A stretch of DNA of 64,000 nucleotides from a virus (lineage: Duplodnaviria > Caudoviricetes): positions 6,086 through 70,085 of IMG/VR virus record IMGVR_UViG_3300028832_000134; one strand, given 5' to 3'. A program made the position numbers and the translations under genes. The first letter of the stretch is position 1. Each line of letters starts with the position of its first letter. Positions 8,970 through 54,767 of the stretch are shown one piece after another. A model generated the notes under the pieces. The model saw only the letters and a list, made by a program, of their open reading frames with translations, had not been told where the DNA came from and searched no databases.

Positions 8970-9018
8970 TGATGTGAGCTCCTTTCTTGATGTAAGTACT
9001 ATAACGATTCATGAAGAA

Positions 9019-35709: not shown

Positions 35710-37215
35710 TTATCTACTCAGCTTAGTCCACACAGGAATGAAATTGTCCATCCAAGGATTGATTTTCTCAAGAGTTCGCGCTACTGCGAACACTTGATCA
35801 TCTCGATACTGACGACCAATCAGCTGAACGCCGATCGGAATATCCTGATCATTTTCTCTAATTAGACCACCAGGAACAGAGGCTGCTGGATATCCGACGA
35901 AATTGGCCAGAGGAGTTTCGGCGAACGAGATGAAATCTGTTTCGCTGTCTAGAAACTTTCCATCAATTCGTTCATTGCAGTGGCCATGCTGATGCTGTTT
36001 CATTGGAAGACAGATGGCAGTAGGAGACAAGATAAGATCATAAGACTCGAAGATATCTTCAAAGTTATCTAAGATGTCTGTCTTGACGTCGTTGAAGGAC
36101 CGAAAAACATTGATATTCATCTCCGCAGCATACTTGTTGTACGTGATGAACTCTTTTGGAACTTGCTCGAAATACTTTCCTTCAAAATTTATACCACGAG
36201 CACGCCAAGCAGCTAGATCGAGTGCAGTATCAACAGAGATCCAAGTTGCCCAAGTTCTCATTATCTCATTTACATCGTGCTTGAAGTTGAAGTGAACTAG
36301 GTCAACAGTTATTCCAGCAGATTCTAGTTTCTTTGCAACTTCCCAAGTGAGCTGTTTCACCCGATGATCTACCACAGGCCACAGATCAAAGTCGAATGTT
36401 ACAGCAACACGGAGACCAGATACTGGCATCTCCATCTGTTTTACGAAATCCACGTTCGCATTGATCGGCAAACTGAATGGATCTCTCGGATTGTAATGGG
36501 CCATTGCATTCAGCATAGTTGCACTGTCTGCTACTGTCTTGGTCAAGCATCCATTGAAGCAGAAAGGATGTGTAGCTGCCCATGCATCGGGTCTGCACAC
36601 ACTAGGCACAGTTCCAAGCGAGGGCTTGAATCCGAACAGATTGCACCAACCTGCAGGAATTCGGATAGATCCACCTGCGTCGCCGCCTTCGCCAAAGATG
36701 GCAAGTCCTGATGCAACTGCCGATGCTGTACCGCCAGAAGATCCTCCAGAAGTCCGGTTCAGATCAAATGGATTAGCTGTAGCCCCATATTGGAAATTCT
36801 CGCAAGCACCGCTGAATCCGAAAGCGGGAGCATTGGTCTTTCCGATTACGATCGCACCAAGCGACTCAGCTGCTTTACAGAACTCTGAATCATATGCGTC
36901 TACATCGGTTAGAACCGGAACACCACCGTGGGAATTTGTCCATCCGGTTTTGGAAGGTAAAAAGTCCTTCAAGCAGACTGGCACACCGGCAAACGGTCCG
37001 CAATACTCGCCGGCAGCTAATCGCTGTTCTAGCTTCTCTGCAGCCCTGAGAGCTTCATCCTTTCGAGTATAGGTGTATGCAGTTAGCAGACCGTTCCACT
37101 TTTCGATACGGTCAAAGAAGTACTCAATGATGTCGGTAGGAACAAGCTCGCCATCGTTGACGAGCTTGCCTATCTCAAGACCAGAGAGTCTCTCTAATTT
37201 AATGTCAGACTTCAA
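35710..37215 (-). CDS. Amidase-signature (GatA-like) amidase
   Basis: LKD, GKTNAPAFG, GGSSGG, GDAGGSIRIPA (Lys-cisSer-Ser triad). Confidence 0.9.
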   Translation of the reverse strand: MKSDIKLERLSGLEIGKLVNDGELVPTDIIEYFFDRIEKWNGLLTAYTYTRKDEALRAAEKLEQRLAAGEYCGPFAGVPVCLKDFLPSKTGWTNSHGGVPVLTDVDAYDSEFCKAAESLGAIVIGKTNAPAFGFSGACENFQYGATANPFDLNRTSGGSSGGTASAVASGLAIFGEGGDAGGSIRIPAGWCNLFGFKPSLGTVPSVCRPDAWAATHPFCFNGCLTKTVADSATMLNAMAHYNPRDPFSLPINANVDFVKQMEMPVSGLRVAVTFDFDLWPVVDHRVKQLTWEVAKKLESAGITVDLVHFNFKHDVNEIMRTWATWISVDTALDLAAWRARGINFEGKYFEQVPKEFITYNKYAAEMNINVFRSFNDVKTDILDNFEDIFESYDLILSPTAICLPMKQHQHGHCNERIDGKFLDSETDFISFAETPLANFVGYPAASVPGGLIRENDQDIPIGVQLIGRQYRDDQVFAVARTLEKINPWMDNFIPVWTKLSR

Positions 37216-37942
37216 TGTTGTACTCCTTCAAGTAAGCTGCACCAACCTGATCCTTCTTCCAGTTCTTCGCAAGACGATAACCGATAGGAGAGAATACGAC
37301 CTCGAAGGCCAGCTCAAGTAGCATCATCATGAACGAGCAGACGAGAACTTGCTTCCAAGTCCAGCCGAAGAACACGTAGGACACGAACAGTGCAAATACA
37401 AAATTGTCAACGAACTGACCTGCAGCAGTGGAGAGGAAACTGCGAATAGCAAATCCACCATAGGTGTCTTTCTTATCGACATGTTTGCCAACGAACTTGT
37501 TTACAACAGAATTAGTGACACCGCCAAGGAACATTGCAAGAGCAGACCCAATCACTACATACCAAGTAGAAGCAAGAGTAGCATCTAATCCGTTGTTGAT
37601 AGCTGTACTGATCTCTTCTGTAGCTCCAGCATAACTTGCGGCCCAAATGCCTGGAATCTTCACAATCAGCATATACATTACAGCAGTGAGCAGATTAGCG
37701 AGCATCGCAACGGTGTTAAGGATAGTAGCGGTCTTTGCGCCGAATCGCTTGCAGACAGCATCCATGCACAGGAAAGAGATCCATGAAACAAAGATGCCCG
37801 CCGTTGACGCAAGCCACGGCAGGTTGAAAACAGATTTATTTGCGAGGAGATTCATGGAGACGACGGAGAGGATGAAGATTGCTGTGACCATTCCAGGGAT
37901 GGCACGAAGAGCATCTTTGACTTGAGTTAGTAGCTTTTTCAT
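37205..37942 (-). CDS. yhhQ: Queuosine-precursor transporter (YhhQ/VUT family)
   Basis: Multiple TM helices, MNLLANK, SFLCMD..KRFG, RSFLSTAAGQFVDNFVF. Confidence 0.85.
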   Translation of the reverse strand: MKKLLTQVKDALRAIPGMVTAIFILSVVSMNLLANKSVFNLPWLASTAGIFVSWISFLCMDAVCKRFGAKTATILNTVAMLANLLTAVMYMLIVKIPGIWAASYAGATEEISTAINNGLDATLASTWYVVIGSALAMFLGGVTNSVVNKFVGKHVDKKDTYGGFAIRSFLSTAAGQFVDNFVFALFVSYVFFGWTWKQVLVCSFMMMLLELAFEVVFSPIGYRLAKNWKKDQVGAAYLKEYNIEV

Positions 37943-38012
37943 GATTGTTGTTCCTCCTAAGAACTTCTAGATTTTGTACTACTTGATGATCAGATACCTC
38001 CATTCAGATCAA

Positions 38013-38054
38013 TCATGAAGTCCGAGGAACATTCTTCGCGTGGTTCATTTTCAT
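38013..38054 (-). CDS. 13-aa leader peptide MKMNHAKNVPRTS
   Basis: Perfect AAGGAGG SD 7 nt upstream of ATG. Confidence 0.5.
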   Translation of the reverse strand: MKMNHAKNVPRTS

Positions 38055-38061
38055 GTTACTT

Positions 38062-38113
38062 CCTCCTTTATTTTTGTTTTACGAGGGGCTGTCAGGATGC
38101 TACAAAACCCTCG
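38062..38113 (-). promoter_or_regulatory. preQ1-I-like riboswitch candidate
   Basis: CGAGGG-loop(U...C)-CCCUCG-UAAAACAAAAAUAAAGGAGG upstream of yhhQ, starting about 7 nt after a promoter motif. Confidence 0.55.
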
Positions 38114-38157
38114 GTAGATATACTGTAACGATCTACGCAACTTTATATAAGGTGATC

Positions 38158-38625
38158 TCACATCACATTCGGAGGACTAAAATAGCTCACAATTGCATAG
38201 CGATCTTTCAATCGCGTGTAGCGGAAGATAATGACCTGACGATTCAGAGCAGACCGGACTGTATCGGTTTCTTCTGCTTGGATGCGCTTGAGAGTGTAGA
38301 ACACAAAAGGCATACTCTGAATGATCATGTCGTGAATAGACTTTTCTTCCGGAAAATCAGGATAGAGTGCGCAGTTTGCATGATCAGGAAGATAATCCGC
38401 AAGCTGCTTTAGCGTGTTGCAGATACCTGTACTATCAAGCAATGCATCAAACTCAGATTTTGTCAACAACCTATCTGAAAGATAGTACAATGCTGAGGTA
38501 GAACCTTCATTGATGATATTGACCAGAGCGTCCATTACACTGCGCCAGAATTTATGAAATTCTTCACCGAGTTCTTGTGTACGAACTACTCGACAGCAGT
38601 CTTTCAGTGTGAAATGATTAACCAT
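38158..38625 (-). CDS. Hypothetical protein
   Basis: 155-aa ORF. Confidence 0.55.
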   Translation of the reverse strand: MVNHFTLKDCCRVVRTQELGEEFHKFWRSVMDALVNIINEGSTSALYYLSDRLLTKSEFDALLDSTGICNTLKQLADYLPDHANCALYPDFPEEKSIHDMIIQSMPFVFYTLKRIQAEETDTVRSALNRQVIIFRYTRLKDRYAIVSYFSPPNVM

Positions 38626-48996: not shown

Positions 48997-49072
48997 TGGA
49001 GCAGGAGACGGGACTCGAACCCGCGGCAGTCTGCTTGGAGGGCAGATACTCTACCATCTGAGTTACTCCTGC
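48997..49072 (-). tRNA. tRNA-Gly(UCC)
   Basis: Full cloverleaf, encoded CCA. Confidence 0.95.
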
Positions 49073-49074
49073 AT

Positions 49075-50135
49075 GTTGGCATACTACCGATGATCAATCG
49101 GCTGTCTCCCCTGGGGTATGCCAGCTTCCAGCGGACGCTGTTTTAATACGCGCACGCCTTTGCGTAAGCTTCCATCAAGCTCTAAGAGTTGTTTTTGATC
49201 ACAGGCCGAACCAATCCTGATTTAATTTGATGAAACAATGACGGCCCCTTTACGAACAATCTCTCCGGTTACATTACGCCTGACGCTCAAGTAAGAGTTG
49301 GTCATCGTAGCCTCTGCTCAATTCATGTCCGCTATCCTACTGGGGACGCATCCCCAACCCTCACCGGATTGATTGTCGGAAAGGGGCCGATCACAGCTTG
49401 TGTCATTTTCGATCCATTCGCTCTTGCAGCTCGCTCACAGATCTCCATCTCTGCTGAGGTCTACTTCTGGCACAAGATACTTTATTCTGCACTCTCGTAG
49501 TAAATGTTGCAATGGAGAATTTCCCGGGGTTGTTAGGTACCCGTACAACAATAACCTGCACGCCCCCACTATACTATGTACCATCACACAGGCAGTATAG
49601 TGTCGCTTCCGTCAGATATATCTTTTCACTGACGGTGACGTACTTTTCGTGTGGCGCCTTTTCCCACTTGGCGCCTGGGTCGCATCTCTCGTCAAAGTCT
49701 GCTCAACATGTTACCATGCTTCTTGCCTTCGTCCTTGTTGACAATTTGACAACAAGACGGGCGACCCCCTGAGGCCCAATAATGTTGCCGGATCTACGGC
49801 TCTAACAAGGAATGTGCATGCTCCAACAGATAGTGCTATTCGTATCACTCAGAGCTACACGTTATTACTCCTCGCATCCTTGCTAGATCACATGGGGCCG
49901 CTCTTCTGCGTCACTATCGGCGCGTGCGGCCAGGCTCCGACAGCTGAAATGATCTGCTGCCGGGGCAACTCCCTCCCGATTTCAGTTGCAGCTACGGGTT
50001 ATAATACTGCAACCTAGTGGGGCAACCGGACTTCAGGAGAGCGTCAGCACCACTTGACCTATGTGTTAACTCCCTACACGACTACTTACTTGCCTGGTCG
50101 TCGTCGTATCCGGCCGGCAGTGTGCGTCAATTAGA
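49075..50135 (-). ncRNA. Large structured ncRNA candidate (GOLLD/ROOL-like)
   Basis: About 1.06 kb with no credible ORF between two tRNAs, many nested helices. Confidence 0.5.
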
Positions 50136-50138
50136 CGC

Positions 50139-50222
50139 TGGTGCGGATGACAGGACTCGAACCTGCATGGTCTATCCACTGGAACCTAAATCCAGCGTGT
50201 CTGCCAGTTCCACCACATCCGC
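50139..50222 (-). tRNA. tRNA-Leu(UAG)
   Basis: Cloverleaf with variable arm, CCA. Confidence 0.95.
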
Positions 50223-50225
50223 AAG

Positions 50226-50510
50226 TTAATCAGGAAGATTAGTTTCGCCTACATTGAAGTAGTGAACGGTCTGCGTAACCGTGTACAGATCTCTGCTGGT
50301 CATCGTGTGAGATGCCAGAATGAAATTGTAGGCTTCGCTGTCGATCTCGCAATCCACGGTGCTGAGTACGTCACACCGGAAAGGCTTAACTCCTTCCTCA
50401 TGGTTGAGCATCACCTCGTACCCCGGACGGATGCTGCCAAATGCCGGTGCAGTGGCAATCACGAGAGTACCGTGATCTCTCCTCTTGCAAAGAACCAACT
50501 TGATGTACAT
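50226..50510 (-). CDS. Hypothetical protein
   Basis: Start MYIKLV after GGAGGT and a promoter motif. Confidence 0.6.
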   Translation of the reverse strand: MYIKLVLCKRRDHGTLVIATAPAFGSIRPGYEVMLNHEEGVKPFRCDVLSTVDCEIDSEAYNFILASHTMTSRDLYTVTQTVHYFNVGETNLPD

Positions 50511-50584
50511 ATCAGTACCTCCTTGAATTTTATTGATGTGTTGGCTGCTTACAACTACTATAACGATCGAGAAAATTTGAAGAA

Positions 50585-50660
50585 TGGAGCTGCTGGACGG
50601 ACTCGAACCGACGGCCTGCGAATTACAAATTCGCTGCTCTACCAACTGAGCTACAACAGC
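50585..50660 (-). tRNA. tRNA-Thr(UGU)
   Basis: Full cloverleaf, CCA. Confidence 0.95.
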
Positions 50661-51041
50661 ATCTCCTGCCGAATAGTTTAATGTGATGACAGATATTCCC
50701 TACATTATTTTCTGCCTGTCCCAAATGACGCATTCAGATAACAGCCACTTTGTGATAATATTATTTCGTATTATCTCGTTTTTGTTAGCCAGGACAACTT
50801 GTTACACCTGTCGTTGAATATAACGATCAGGGGACAAGTATCACATTATTTTGATAGTGTCCCGTAGTCGACGCCTTAGTCCGACCATCCATAGGTTCTT
50901 CGGCGATCCAACGATCTTTCCTATGCGCACGCAGGCGAATTTTCGTGCGTCCGGGACGTTTTAGTTACCCCTTAGATTGTGTAGCAATACTCTAAGCATG
51001 AGGATTTTCTGATGTGTGGCATGATCTCAAAGCTACGCCCC

Positions 51042-51118
51042 TGGCGACTCTGACGGGAATCGAACCCGTGACCTCTGGCGTGACAGGCCAGCGCTCTAAC
51101 CATCTGAGCTACAAAGCC
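51042..51118 (-). tRNA. tRNA-Asp(GUC)
   Basis: Full cloverleaf, CCA. Confidence 0.95.
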
Positions 51119-51594
51119 ATGTAGATGCCTTATTCATCATGACTTAGTTGACCTTTCCCGGCATGGGTGACCGGTTCTCGGTCCAGTGTACCGTGCTGCC
51201 ATTTTTGTCGAATACACCAGATCGGCAGATCCTTCAGCAGAGCTAATCTCACTGGCCCACCAAGTAGCAATGCATTTCATTCTCTCTGAAGGCAGGCACC
51301 CCTCAGATCATCGGGAGCTACCCGATTCTCGTCTCTCCGAAGCGTCACGGTGCTAAGTTCCCTGCTGCTTGAGTGTCACACCGTTTGTACCCACTGTAAC
51401 CCGTGCAGGCTTGAGGCACATCTTAGCTGGAGTGCATCGATATATGCATCCTTCCCTTGTATCAGCTGAATACAAGTCTCCATAGGACTACTGGTAAGTG
51501 TAAGATCTCCTGGTACAGCGATATCCTCCAGATCTTGTCGAACTATTTCAACACTGGATGCCAGGACTGTTTGGGGATCGTTTATCTTACACTT

Positions 51595-51668
51595 TGGCTG
51601 GGGATACTAGAATCGAACTAGTTCAAACGAGGTCAAAGCTCGTTGCGCTGCCAATACGCTAATCCCCA
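51595..51668 (-). tRNA. tRNA-Gln(UUG), divergent
   Basis: U1 start, ACGAG-CTTTGAC-CTCGT arm, CCA; 5' end overlaps the endonuclease stop codon. Confidence 0.9.
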
Positions 51669-52282
51669 GTATCTTTAGTTAAGTATGCATCAATTTGTTT
51701 CTGATATCGAATGAACCACTCTAACGATCTATTGCAGCATACACATAACATCCCTCGAAACTTATTAGTAGAATGATCATGATCAACTGACAGCCCCATT
51801 TTTCGTTTATTTCCATTTACTGTTTGATAATGGCTAAAATCGCGTCCGCATATTTCACACACAGGATGTGCTTGTTTGTATTCATCTAGCTGTTTATAGT
51901 TAATATCTAGTTTGATAAGTTCTGTACCGTTGTATGCTGAAACAAATTTATTAGATATTTTTTGATTACTACGGAGATGCATGCTAAAATGATTACTCAA
52001 TCCAATATAATTTTTGAACGATTTTCCACATTCCGGACACCTAAGTGGATCATCTGCATCCCAAACAAATTCTGGCAACTTATCTAATCTTTGTTTACAA
52101 CCTAAATTAAACTTATCTTTATCTTTGTGCTTACCTTTTAGTGTATCCGACACTCTCTTGTTTACTTCACTTCTGTGCATCCGCGAAGCATATTGGCGAC
52201 TACAATGTGGTGAACAAAATCTGCCTGATCCATATTTCCCATCATGCGTTACACCGCAATTCTCACAGATATAAGTTGACAT
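51659..52282 (-). CDS. Endonuclease VII-type HNH nuclease with zinc fingers (homing endonuclease-like)
   Basis: CENCG..FCSPHC, C2H2 finger CPECGKSF..LSNHFSMH, CEICG..VDHDH..RGMLCVCCN. Confidence 0.8.
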   Translation of the reverse strand: MSTYICENCGVTHDGKYGSGRFCSPHCSRQYASRMHRSEVNKRVSDTLKGKHKDKDKFNLGCKQRLDKLPEFVWDADDPLRCPECGKSFKNYIGLSNHFSMHLRSNQKISNKFVSAYNGTELIKLDINYKQLDEYKQAHPVCEICGRDFSHYQTVNGNKRKMGLSVDHDHSTNKFRGMLCVCCNRSLEWFIRYQKQIDAYLTKDTGD

Positions 52283-52323
52283 TTTGAACCTCCAATTTTA
52301 TGATGTTACAATAAAATTAAAGG

Positions 52324-52361
52324 TTCAAAGTCCGATGTGATTACCATTTCACCACATCCCA
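52324..52361 (-). pseudogene. 5' half of tRNA-Gln(UUG), truncated after the anticodon loop
   Basis: TGGGATG TG GTGA-AATGGTAA-TCAC A TCGGA CTTTGAA, then unrelated sequence. Confidence 0.8.
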
Positions 52362-52551
52362 TTATGTAACACAATCAAGCAGCGGATGTGCTGTTGTCCT
52401 AACCTTATCTGCATGATTGTGTGCGAGTGATCGGAGTGGAAGATGTGACTGGTGACATCTTCCGGCACAGCACATTACAGGAGCACCCTTGCCTGTCCCT
52501 CATGTCTGTCTGGACTGAGGTACTATGAACAATTCCGCACAGCGCGCGGCC

Positions 52552-52627
52552 TGGTGGGCCCAGCAGGACTCGAACCTGCGATCAACCAGTTATGAGCTGG
52601 CAGCTCTGCCAACTGAACTATAGGCCC
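52552..52627 (-). tRNA. tRNA(CAU), probably Ile2
   Basis: GGGCCTA acceptor, CTCATAA loop, CCA. Confidence 0.9.
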
Positions 52628-52776
52628 ATATAGGGCAGCCCATTGCTGACCCAAGGGCTGCATCACAGCTCGTGGCCGGCTTTTTGCGTAGGCTGGTTGG
52701 TCAGACTCCGCTTCCGGAGTTTCGCATCTTATGGTCTGTTTCGTAGAATGCCTTCTACACGGGCAGACTTCCCGAA

Positions 52777-52871
52777 TGGCTCACCCGGCAGGAATTGGAC
52801 CTGCATCTCCCTTGCGCATCAGGTGTTTTACCGAAGGACTTGTTGATCGCCTTACATTAAACTACAGGTGA
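52777..52871 (-). tRNA. Atypical tRNA-like RNA (expanded D-loop, poor anticodon stem)
   Basis: Acceptor TCACCTG/CGGGTGA+GCCA and T-arm intact. Confidence 0.5.
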
Positions 52872-52877
52872 ATATTG

Positions 52878-52953
52878 TGGTGGAATTGATGGGACTCGAA
52901 CCCACGACCTATTGCTTGCAAGGCAATTGCTCTCCCAACTGAGCTACAACCCC
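52878..52953 (-). tRNA. tRNA-Ala(UGC)
   Basis: G3:U70, CCA. Confidence 0.95.
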
Positions 52954-53082
52954 ATGTATGAATCAAGTAAATAGCTGTGACCATCCATTCAACTACAGCT
53001 TTGCACATATAGCGTGCTTTCCGGTGTGGTTAGTACCTTACTCCAAGATGTCTCCGGCACTTCGTAGCACTATTTACCTGAT

Positions 53083-53167
53083 TGGTGTTCAGCGTGGGAC
53101 TCGAACCCACATGCATTGCTGCATCGGTACTTGAAGCCGACATGTCTACCAATTCCATCAGCTGAAC
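53083..53167 (-). tRNA. tRNA-Leu(CAA)
   Basis: Cloverleaf with variable arm, CCA. Confidence 0.9.
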
Positions 53168-53171
53168 ATGT

Positions 53172-53260
53172 TGGCGGAGCAGGTAGGATTTGAACCCACG
53201 GCTCCTTGCGGAGTCACCGGTTTTCAAGACCGGCTCCATAAACCACTCGGACACTGCTCC
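53172..53260 (-). tRNA. tRNA-Ser(UGA)
   Basis: Long variable arm, CCA. Confidence 0.95.
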
Positions 53261-53373
53261 TTATATGTTCGGATACTAGGTCCATATGTGACACTAGAAA
53301 CGTTACAATCTTCGTGCCGGACCTAGTACCCTCCCCAGAATCTGTTGATTCTTTAGTGGACAATCATATTAGA

Positions 53374-53449
53374 TGGTCCAAGTGGAGGGACTCAAACCCC
53401 CGACATCCGGTCCCCAAGGCCGGCGTTCTATCAACTGAACTACACCTGG
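53374..53449 (-). tRNA. tRNA-Pro(UGG)
   Basis: Cloverleaf, CCA. Confidence 0.9.
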
Positions 53450-53652
53450 ATGTATTATCTGCATCATTTATCTAACAAGATAGCTGCTTGTCGTAGTTAG
53501 TATCTGACCTGTACTAGACTTTACTGCCGGCTGTCGCTGCAGACAACAGCTGCCACAGCATCTTGCGAGCTACTTCTTTTGGGCGGGACAAGTAGCAAGC
53601 CCTAGGCAACTAATGAACGACGAAGGATACTTCTTCATGATTCATACCTTTC

Positions 53653-53738
53653 TGGTGCCGCTAACCGGACTCGAACCGGCACGGAATAACTCCGGCGGAT
53701 TTTAAGTCCGCTACGTCTACCAATTCCATCACAGCGGC
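53653..53738 (-). tRNA. tRNA-Leu(UAA)
   Basis: Cloverleaf with variable arm, CCA. Confidence 0.95.
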
Positions 53739-53743
53739 GTTTA

Positions 53744-54183
53744 TGGTGGACCCGGCGAGAGTCGAACTCGCGTCCAAAATTCCTACATAAACACAATCTT
53801 CTTACGCAGTAGGAAACTCGTTTCTGGCATTCAGTAGGCTGCCAAGGACCTTACCATGACCTTTGTGCCTGTTAGGGCTGCCCAGTTATGGGTTCGCCTC
53901 CACCACCTTGTTTTTCCGACAACAAGGAACGTCATTCAGTACCGCCAGCATAAGTCTGTTATACCTGGCGACCTGCTAATTCTTTGACCTCAAGTGTTTA
54001 CCTAGCAGGAGGTACACTGTTTCGGATCCTGTAGTGCTTAAGCAGCAGCCTTCAGAGAGGAAGCAGCGAAAGCAGGATGGATAGCGATGATAGTAGTGTC
54101 AGTTAATTTGTTGTTGACCCTTAGGCGGTATCATACCTGCGAATTGTGTTTTCTCAGAACCCTGTCGAAACCTTTACGGGCCC
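53744..54183 (-). ncRNA. ssrA: tmRNA; tag (A)DTTIIAIHPAFAASSLKAAA*
   Basis: 5' GGGCCCGTAAAGGTTTCGAC, 3' GTTCGACTCTCGCCGGGTCCACCA with G3:U, resume context AAATTAACT|GAC, tag frame 54100-54038. Confidence 0.93.
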
Positions 54184-54691
54184 ATGTGGGGGTGTATCTG
54201 CACATATCTACTTAACTTCTGCCAGATACTGGGAGGGGAAGAACGCTGGATGCATCGCGTTATAGATACCTTGAGCCGGTTGAATCAAAATGTGAGTAAC
54301 CGCATTTATGTAACCTCACATGAAACAGCTATCAGCAAAGATGGCATCAACACCGAAGCTCCGCCGGAGGCGTGATCAGACTGTTTCTTTTGAACACTTG
54401 CTCTTGGTTACGACTTGTCAAAGGCTAGTAAAGAGAGCAACCAGATAGGAGCGAACGGTCCAGGTAGGTCAGCTCGGACTAGATATGGGGGCAAGTCGGG
54501 CAAGCGGTTGGAATGGAAAGCAACGAACCCTCTAGTTTAATGCACCTATTATGACAAGTATCACTACTTTGTCTCCCGGGATTTTCTGCTATTCAGTGCA
54601 TCCTGTGTCACTTGTGCTGGCGATCAACTCAGGTCCATGATAGGGAGGAGATCTAAGGTTCCGTTCATTTCGGGACTACGGATTCGTCACT

Positions 54692-54767
54692 TGGTGGGAA
54701 CAGCAGGACTCGAACCTGCGACCCCTTCCTTGTAAGGGAAGTGCTCTACCAGCTGAGCTATACTCCC
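54692..54767 (-). tRNA. tRNA-Val(UAC)
   Basis: Full cloverleaf, CCA. Confidence 0.95.

Follow-up and report, generated by a model that had tools for sequence, protein, structure and literature searches.

A gene for a yhhQ-type importer in a rumen phage is preceded by a leader that looks as if it might fold into a small RNA switch. The question is whether it does so and, if it does, what kind of riboswitch it is. The window analysed here is a stretch of 64,000 nucleotides from a 70-kb IMG/VR virus contig, approximately 47% complete, from a bovine gut metagenome. The public sequencing runs that contain the locus are bovine gut metagenomes of DNA; none is of RNA. A first-pass annotation, made from the sequence, had proposed a preQ1-I-like riboswitch here, and all the features that it named (a promoter-like motif, the stem P1, a 20-nt loop, an A-rich tail and a ribosome-binding (SD) sequence) are present on the minus strand. 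The candidate pseudoknot spans 38113-38062 on that strand, and its parts are listed in Table 1.

Table 1. Parts of the preQ1-like leader and the features downstream of it, in window coordinates.
Feature	Position	Strand	Basis
Promoter-like motif GATCGTTACAGT	38133-38122	-	-10-like TACAGT, ending 8 nt 5' of P1
P1, 5' strand, CGAGGG	38113-38108	-	Covariation
Whole loop, 20 nt, first base U, last base C	38107-38088	-	Sequence
L1, UUUUGUA plus 3-nt variable linker	38107-38098	-	UUUUGUA identical in 75/75 distinct members, most of them collected with patterns demanding it
P2, 5' strand, UCCU (anti-SD)	38097-38094	-	Covaries, in the anchored alignment, with bases immediately 3' of AAAAAUAA
L2, GACAGC; final C (38088) is the candidate ligand-pairing base	38093-38088	-	Final C invariant
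P1, 3' strand, CCCUCG	38087-38082	-	Covariation
L3, A-rich tail; 3' end is the invariant AAAAAUAA (38075-38068)	38081-38068	-	All members, most of them pattern-collected
SD AGGAGG; AGGA (38067-38064) is the P2 3' strand	38067-38062	-	Anchored covariation
13-codon uORF served by the masked SD; ATG 38054-38052	38054-38013	-	Sequence
Relay helix, 5' strand, within the uORF	38031-38017	-	Predicted, MFE and centroid folds
Relay helix, 3' strand, includes yhhQ SD GGAGG (37957-37953)	37967-37949	-	Predicted, MFE and centroid folds
yhhQ-type queuosine-precursor transporter gene, 245 aa	37942-37205	-	Pfam Vut_1, E 1.8e-20; TIGR00697, E 3e-9, below its cut-off

The fold energy of the single window sequence is ordinary (MFE z = -0.07 against shuffles). 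The window sequence alone therefore proves nothing, and the comparison with homologues has to decide. One other reading of the P1 hairpin, as an intrinsic terminator, was rejected because the coding strand has an A-run, and not a U-run, 3' of the hairpin.

Homologues were collected in two ways. A first set of nine phage loci was found by YhhQ protein similarity alone, with no RNA pattern, and gave six distinct leaders. All six have common loop and tail blocks; the letters of P1 differ between them but are always complementary. The larger family set was obtained by pattern scans of viral, metagenome and genome collections together with a covariance model, R1 (built from 20 sequences, 63 positions), and consists of 102 matches, or 75 distinct sequences. 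The window holds a single copy, which scores 72.8 bits with R1, near the top of the family.

Both helices covary in the family set. P1 is paired in 374 of 375 cells (99.7%) over the 75 distinct homologues, and both sides change in four of the five pairs (110 cells). None of 500 shuffles reached this score, and slid registers pair only 36–55%. For P2, the two strands were anchored at fixed points, the base preceding GACA in the loop and the first base 3' of AAAAAUAA in the tail. Positions 2, 3 and 4 of the anchored helix are paired in 99%, 99% and 80%, with exchanges of C-G and U-A that no shuffle out of 500 equalled, this covariation being tied in part to a one-base indel that occurs on both strands. 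Position 2 is C-G in 45 members and U-A in 29; position 3 is C-G in 57, U-A in 13, U-G in 3 and A-U in 1; and position 4 is divided between U-A (29) and C-G (29). Swaps of the whole helix are also found (CUCAU/AUGAG, CAACU/AGUUG, GCCU/AGGC, CCCUU/AAGGG and AACCUU/AAGGUU). Together, the covariation of P1 and of P2 identifies the fold as an H-type pseudoknot. The leader is thus a real RNA pseudoknot, strongly conserved, in which a ribosome-binding site is hidden. The pairing of the loop UCCU with the AGGA of the SD, which had been proposed from one sequence, is borne out by the family, and P1 and the loop C are conserved in homologous yhhQ leaders; in every one of the 75 distinct members, U is the first base of the loop and C the last.

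The order of the parts, from 5' to 3', is P1, L1, the P2 5' strand, L2, the P1 3' strand, L3 and the P2 3' strand, and only these two helices are supported by the comparison. Across the family, P1 is 5–9 bp, P2 is typically 3–8 bp and the whole loop is 18–23 nt. L1 consists of UUUUGUA followed by 0–6 nt, and is therefore 7–13 nt in total; because the length of the linker varies, L1 and the P2 5' strand together make up 12–17 nt. L2 is 6 nt long, with the sequence GACANC in 70 of the 75 members and GAAANC in 5. Its closing C is present in all 75, and the base preceding this C is C in 33, G in 25, U in 16 and A in 1. L3 is at least 11 nt long and variable, with AAAAAUAA at its 3' end in all members and a pyrimidine just before AAAAAUAA in 70 of 75. 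Approximately 21 unpaired bases are thus invariant while both helices vary freely, but most members were collected with patterns demanding UUUUGUA, GACA and AAAAAUAA, so the invariance of these blocks is partly by construction.

Some members (L007, 2904-2986; L264, 6347-6429, minus strand; L280, 6718-6800) have an extra small hairpin with the stem CAGC/GCUG within L3, right after P1, which implies that L3 tolerates insertions 5' of the invariant AAAAAUAA. A helix between the U-run of L1 and the A-run of L3 was also considered, as the two runs are complementary in most members and a pyrimidine usually precedes AAAAAUAA. It was set aside: such a helix would cross P1 as well as P2, and a simple pseudoknot would need a longer L3.

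The family is almost entirely phage-borne. It comprises at least 75 distinct sequences on approximately 100 phage or metagenome contigs, and its range extends from phages of Streptococcus to those of rumen Clostridia. A search of one genome per species (185,579 species) with the exact pattern gave only four true sites, on MAG contigs of 20–142 kb; the one of these four contigs that was examined is phage-like and again carries yhhQ and an amidase. The element was not found among 150 other Lachnospiraceae genomes. In a BLAST search against cultured phages, neither the 2-kb region nor the 59-nt element gave a real match, and the leader of the cultured pneumococcal phage Dp-1 matched only Dp-1. 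Dp-1 itself has the element at bases 78-133 (59.7 bits), directly 3' of the annotated -10 and 5' of gp01 (QueF), at a place where its record annotates no RNA. The DNA of Dp-1 carries dPreQ1 (PMC6884629).

The genes that follow the element belong largely to one pathway. A downstream gene could be called for 68 of the 75 distinct leaders: 47 are Vut_1/YhhQ, 15 are QueF, one is QueC, one is an SDR and four are unassigned. In one contig (L243, 151-938, minus strand) the first long ORF, 93 nt after the tail, encodes a short-chain dehydrogenase (adh_short) instead of a transporter or que protein, and a short ORF at the masked SD comes before it. Complete phage genomes have one or two copies each, always beside a yhhQ/queF cluster, and all of them have a DpdA-like gene. 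Three (G157-G159) have two copies, one 5' of yhhQ and one 5' of queF-queC, while two others (G155 and G156) have one copy and a DpdA-like gene but no QueC and no QueF. The window record likewise encodes a DpdA-like transglycosylase (phrog_887, E 8.5e-38), and QueC, QueF and Pfam TGT gave no match in its 70 kb, which represent approximately 47% of the genome. In this part of the genome, the presence of a DpdA-like gene together with the absence of queC and queF indicates that the importer probably feeds DNA modification.

In the window, yhhQ is followed by a gene for an amidase-signature protein and then by one for a CDA-type deaminase. The amidase-signature gene (approximately 500 aa, phrog_29364) overlaps or abuts yhhQ in the window (35710-37942, minus strand) and in two relatives, L002 (3001-5214; 58% identity) and L207 (2298-4662). 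The phages with this gene pair that were checked, G155 and G156, are the two that have a DpdA-like gene without QueC or QueF. The pairing suggests that an amidase acts on the imported base. Elsewhere in the window (49000-54767, minus strand) there is a cluster of 12 tRNA genes with a full-length tmRNA gene (53744-54183, 78.8 bits).

Two types of expression platform follow the aptamer. In most copies, the P2 3' strand is the SD, which the pseudoknot masks. In approximately ten copies (for example L200, 8990-8860, minus strand), the SD is replaced by a strand with the same sequence as the 3' half of a terminator hairpin that lies downstream and has a U-run. Such a strand would act as an antiterminator unless it were captured by P2, so that formation of P2 would free the terminator. 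Both platforms appear from their sequences to be wired as OFF switches when P2 is stabilised, and we infer that this is the direction in which they work in vivo. The occurrence of one conserved aptamer with different platforms, in the leaders of genes of one pathway, is a general hallmark of riboswitches.

On the minus strand of the window, the motif [AG]ATCGTTAT recurs approximately 18 times. Ten of these are the exact 9-mer AATCGTTAT, all on the minus strand (for example at 9009, 12462, 16053, 20714, 28422, 35707, 40317, 48898, 57702 and 60424), compared with approximately 0.5 exact occurrences expected by chance. There are approximately eight more sites of the form GATCGTTAT, and all but one of the AATCGTTAT and GATCGTTAT sites are on the gene-coding minus strand. 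The 9-mer is probably the promoter core of this phage group. The same promoter-like motif is also seen inside the terminator-type platforms of relatives, just 5' of the terminator stem. TCGTTA is located 8–16 nt 5' of P1 in 12 relatives, others have a canonical -10 box there, and in Dp-1 the annotated -10 ends 8 nt 5' of P1. Given the recurrence of the motif and these spacings, it is plausible that the start of the transcript coincides with that of P1 to within one or two bases.

The first-pass annotation treated the element as the leader of yhhQ. The element does precede a Vut_1/YhhQ gene, but the SD located 3' of the tail is that of a uORF of 13 codons and does not serve yhhQ directly. In both the MFE and the centroid folds, the last codons of this uORF are predicted to pair with a segment that includes the SD of yhhQ. 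A relative with a different spacer sequence (L239) has the same arrangement of uORF and yhhQ SD, with compensating letters. This suggests a relay in the window. The 3' half of the uORF would mask the SD of yhhQ, opening yhhQ would thus require ribosomes that translate the uORF, and the riboswitch would act through them. A ligand-bound P2 would hide the SD of the uORF, and both the uORF and yhhQ would be silenced.

In several close relatives (L287, 650-834; L237, 1810-2005, minus strand; L284, 575-725, minus strand) the riboswitch SD also serves a short uORF, and a large hairpin spacer of 100–170 nt lies between the uORF and yhhQ. The uORF peptides of these relatives have a common motif, R-I/L-S-(S)-C-L-S-P-P, and the window uORF resembles a truncated homologue. 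Such a uORF with its hairpin spacer may encode a leader peptide or add another layer of regulation.

On the basis of these observations, we consider it probable that the element is an uncatalogued and almost entirely phage-borne riboswitch RNA, with an aptamer resembling a stretched preQ1-I and an expression platform, that works as an OFF switch for a 7-deazaguanine. In the mechanism that we propose, a 7-deazaguanine base (preQ1 and/or preQ0) would bind at the junction of P1 and P2, pair with the invariant C and lock P2. The locked P2 would hide the SD or, in the sister copies, capture the antiterminator strand, and expression of the importer YhhQ, or of QueF or QueC, would be turned off when the base is plentiful. 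The element would then most likely shut off the supply of the modified base that is put into the phage DNA. It counts against this explanation that control of yhhQ in the window would require the uORF relay as an additional step.

The same pseudoknot could be a true riboswitch for a ligand other than preQ1 or preQ0, such as a 7-amido or 7-carboxy 7-deazaguanine, queuine or a plain purine. We regard this as unlikely. The blocks that would line the pocket are unlike those of every preQ1-I type (PMC11625349), phages of this kind make several 7-deazaguanines (PMC6884629), and the coupling of yhhQ to a conserved amidase-signature enzyme, in the window and in relatives, hints at an amide-bearing substrate. 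However, the same blocks are also found 5' of queF and queC in phages with preQ1 as the end point of the pathway, and dPreQ1 is the modification found in Dp-1. Every associated gene acts at or before preQ0/preQ1, and an invariant C adjoining P1 suits a guanine-like face.

It is rather improbable that the pseudoknot masks the SD without any ligand, as a constitutive damper of translation, an RNA thermometer or the operator of a phage or host protein. Pairing of SD with anti-SD can by itself lower translation, and the ordinary fold energy of the single sequence would suit such a role. A simple mask would nevertheless not be expected to keep so many unpaired bases invariant amid freely varying helices, which is typical of a binding pocket. 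Nor would it be expected to combine one aptamer with two unrelated platforms, or to be restricted to 7-deazaguanine genes in phages of such different hosts, and no conserved candidate gene for a regulator is seen adjoining the element.

The relation of this putative riboswitch to the known preQ1 classes can be judged from searches and from architecture. In Rfam 15, no family matches the window element, either at E<=10 at the locus (37850-38300) or at gathering thresholds across the window. The preQ1-I model RF00522 (45 positions, gathering score 39 bits) gave no match at E<=10 at the locus, anywhere in the 70-kb record or in the loci of 20 members. At E<=0.01 it gave none in the four MAGs that hold the element, and the B. 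subtilis control was found. The models for preQ1-II (RF01054) and preQ1-III (RF02680) gave no match at E<=10 at the locus or in the 20 member loci. Since no Rfam preQ1 model recognises the element, its homology to preQ1-I rests on architecture. The earlier proposal of a preQ1-I-like riboswitch therefore holds for a conserved, structured leader of riboswitch type with the fold of an H-type pseudoknot, and fails for membership of RF00522.

Aptamers of preQ1-I are compact, with an L1 of only 2–3 nt. The corresponding L1 is 10 nt in the window element and 7–13 nt in the family, which agrees with the suggestion in the first-pass annotation that the 20-nt loop marks a stretched variant and not a typical preQ1-I. 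Three other features of the class are present: a pseudoknot in which the P1 loop pairs with the 3' tail, the specificity cytosine as the base that adjoins the 5' end of the P1 3' strand, and an A-rich L3 that connects P1 to the P2 3' strand and that in the element is longer and ends in AAAAAUAA. Compared with the published description of preQ1-I (PMC11625349), the element thus has in common the topology, UU right after P1, the closing C, the A-rich L3, the burial of the SD and the regulon. It differs in the base before the closing C, which is A in types II and III and U in type I (PMC11625349) but is variable here, and in the length of L1 and L3, which is several times greater in the element.

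Type III preQ1-I is found in yhhQ leaders of gamma-proteobacteria (RF00522; PMC10622847, PMC11625349). These also control yhhQ with an H-type pseudoknot, and have UU after the P1 5' strand, a pyrimidine-rich loop that buries the SD, C as the last base of L2 and a translational OFF logic. However, the type III loop is very small and stringent, whereas that of the element is 18–23 nt with invariant UUUUGUA and GACANC. Type III has A before the C, a position that varies in the element, and the element has a longer L3 ending in AAAAAUAA and is undetected by RF00522. In addition, type III is found in chromosomes of Pseudomonadota, and the element in phages whose hosts are of the Firmicutes type. 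Types I and II (Carnobacterium antarcticum; queC leaders of B. subtilis and T. tengcongensis) resemble it in P1, the A-rich tail and a short P2 with the 3' end, in the ligand-pairing C that adjoins the P1 3' strand, in having both kinds of platform, and in a queCDEF/queT/yhhQ regulon. The aptamer of the element is about twice as long (model of 63 positions versus 45), and its L1 and L3 blocks have no counterpart in these types.

It is very improbable that the element simply belongs to the known preQ1-I class and departs from it by no more than some extra bases in the loops: the topology, the gene association and the UU, C and A-rich L3 (PMC11625349) would all fit, but RF00522 is silent where its control is found, L1 and L3 are long and each has its own invariant block, and the base before the closing C varies. 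Judged from its sequence, the element falls outside RF00522 and is best regarded as a new variant of preQ1-I or as a sister class.

It resembles preQ1-II and preQ1-III in its setting in gut and rumen Firmicutes, in sequestering the SD with a pseudoknot and, probably, in its family of ligands. However, these two classes are HLout pseudoknots of approximately 80–100 nt with four or five helices, whereas the element has two supported helices. No description of this RNA family, of a fourth preQ1 class or of a phage preQ1 riboswitch was found in the published literature or in Rfam. In our judgement it is about as likely as not that the element constitutes a fourth structural class of 7-deazaguanine riboswitch, nearly confined to phages, with a pocket of UUUUGUA, GACANC and AAAAAUAA unlike that of classes I–III, that throttles both the import and the synthesis of the base bound for insertion into phage DNA by DpdA and acts in the window through a uORF relay.

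The leader of a distantly related phage yhhQ (32% identity) is of like architecture but has other loop and tail sequences (L009, 2938-3003). It has a P1 of 7 bp, a 19-nt loop of the form UU...C, an A-rich tail, and CCUU facing AAGG. Model R1 does not match it, and a search for relatives of this leader found none. It may be a bridge form toward preQ1-I.

A survey of the known classes in 2017 found almost no riboswitches in phages and speculated that phages might have classes yet to be discovered (PMC5473149), in agreement with the remark in the first-pass annotation that riboswitches are rarely reported in phages. The element would be such a class, an abundant one, tied to the anti-restriction hypermodification of DNA with 7-deazaguanines. 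Because the cultured phage Dp-1 carries it, the proposal is directly testable. If it is true, the best-studied family of small riboswitches would gain another fold variant and annotators would gain a marker for 7-deazaguanine genes in phage genomes, and it would mean that phages meter a precursor of DNA modification by means of RNA.
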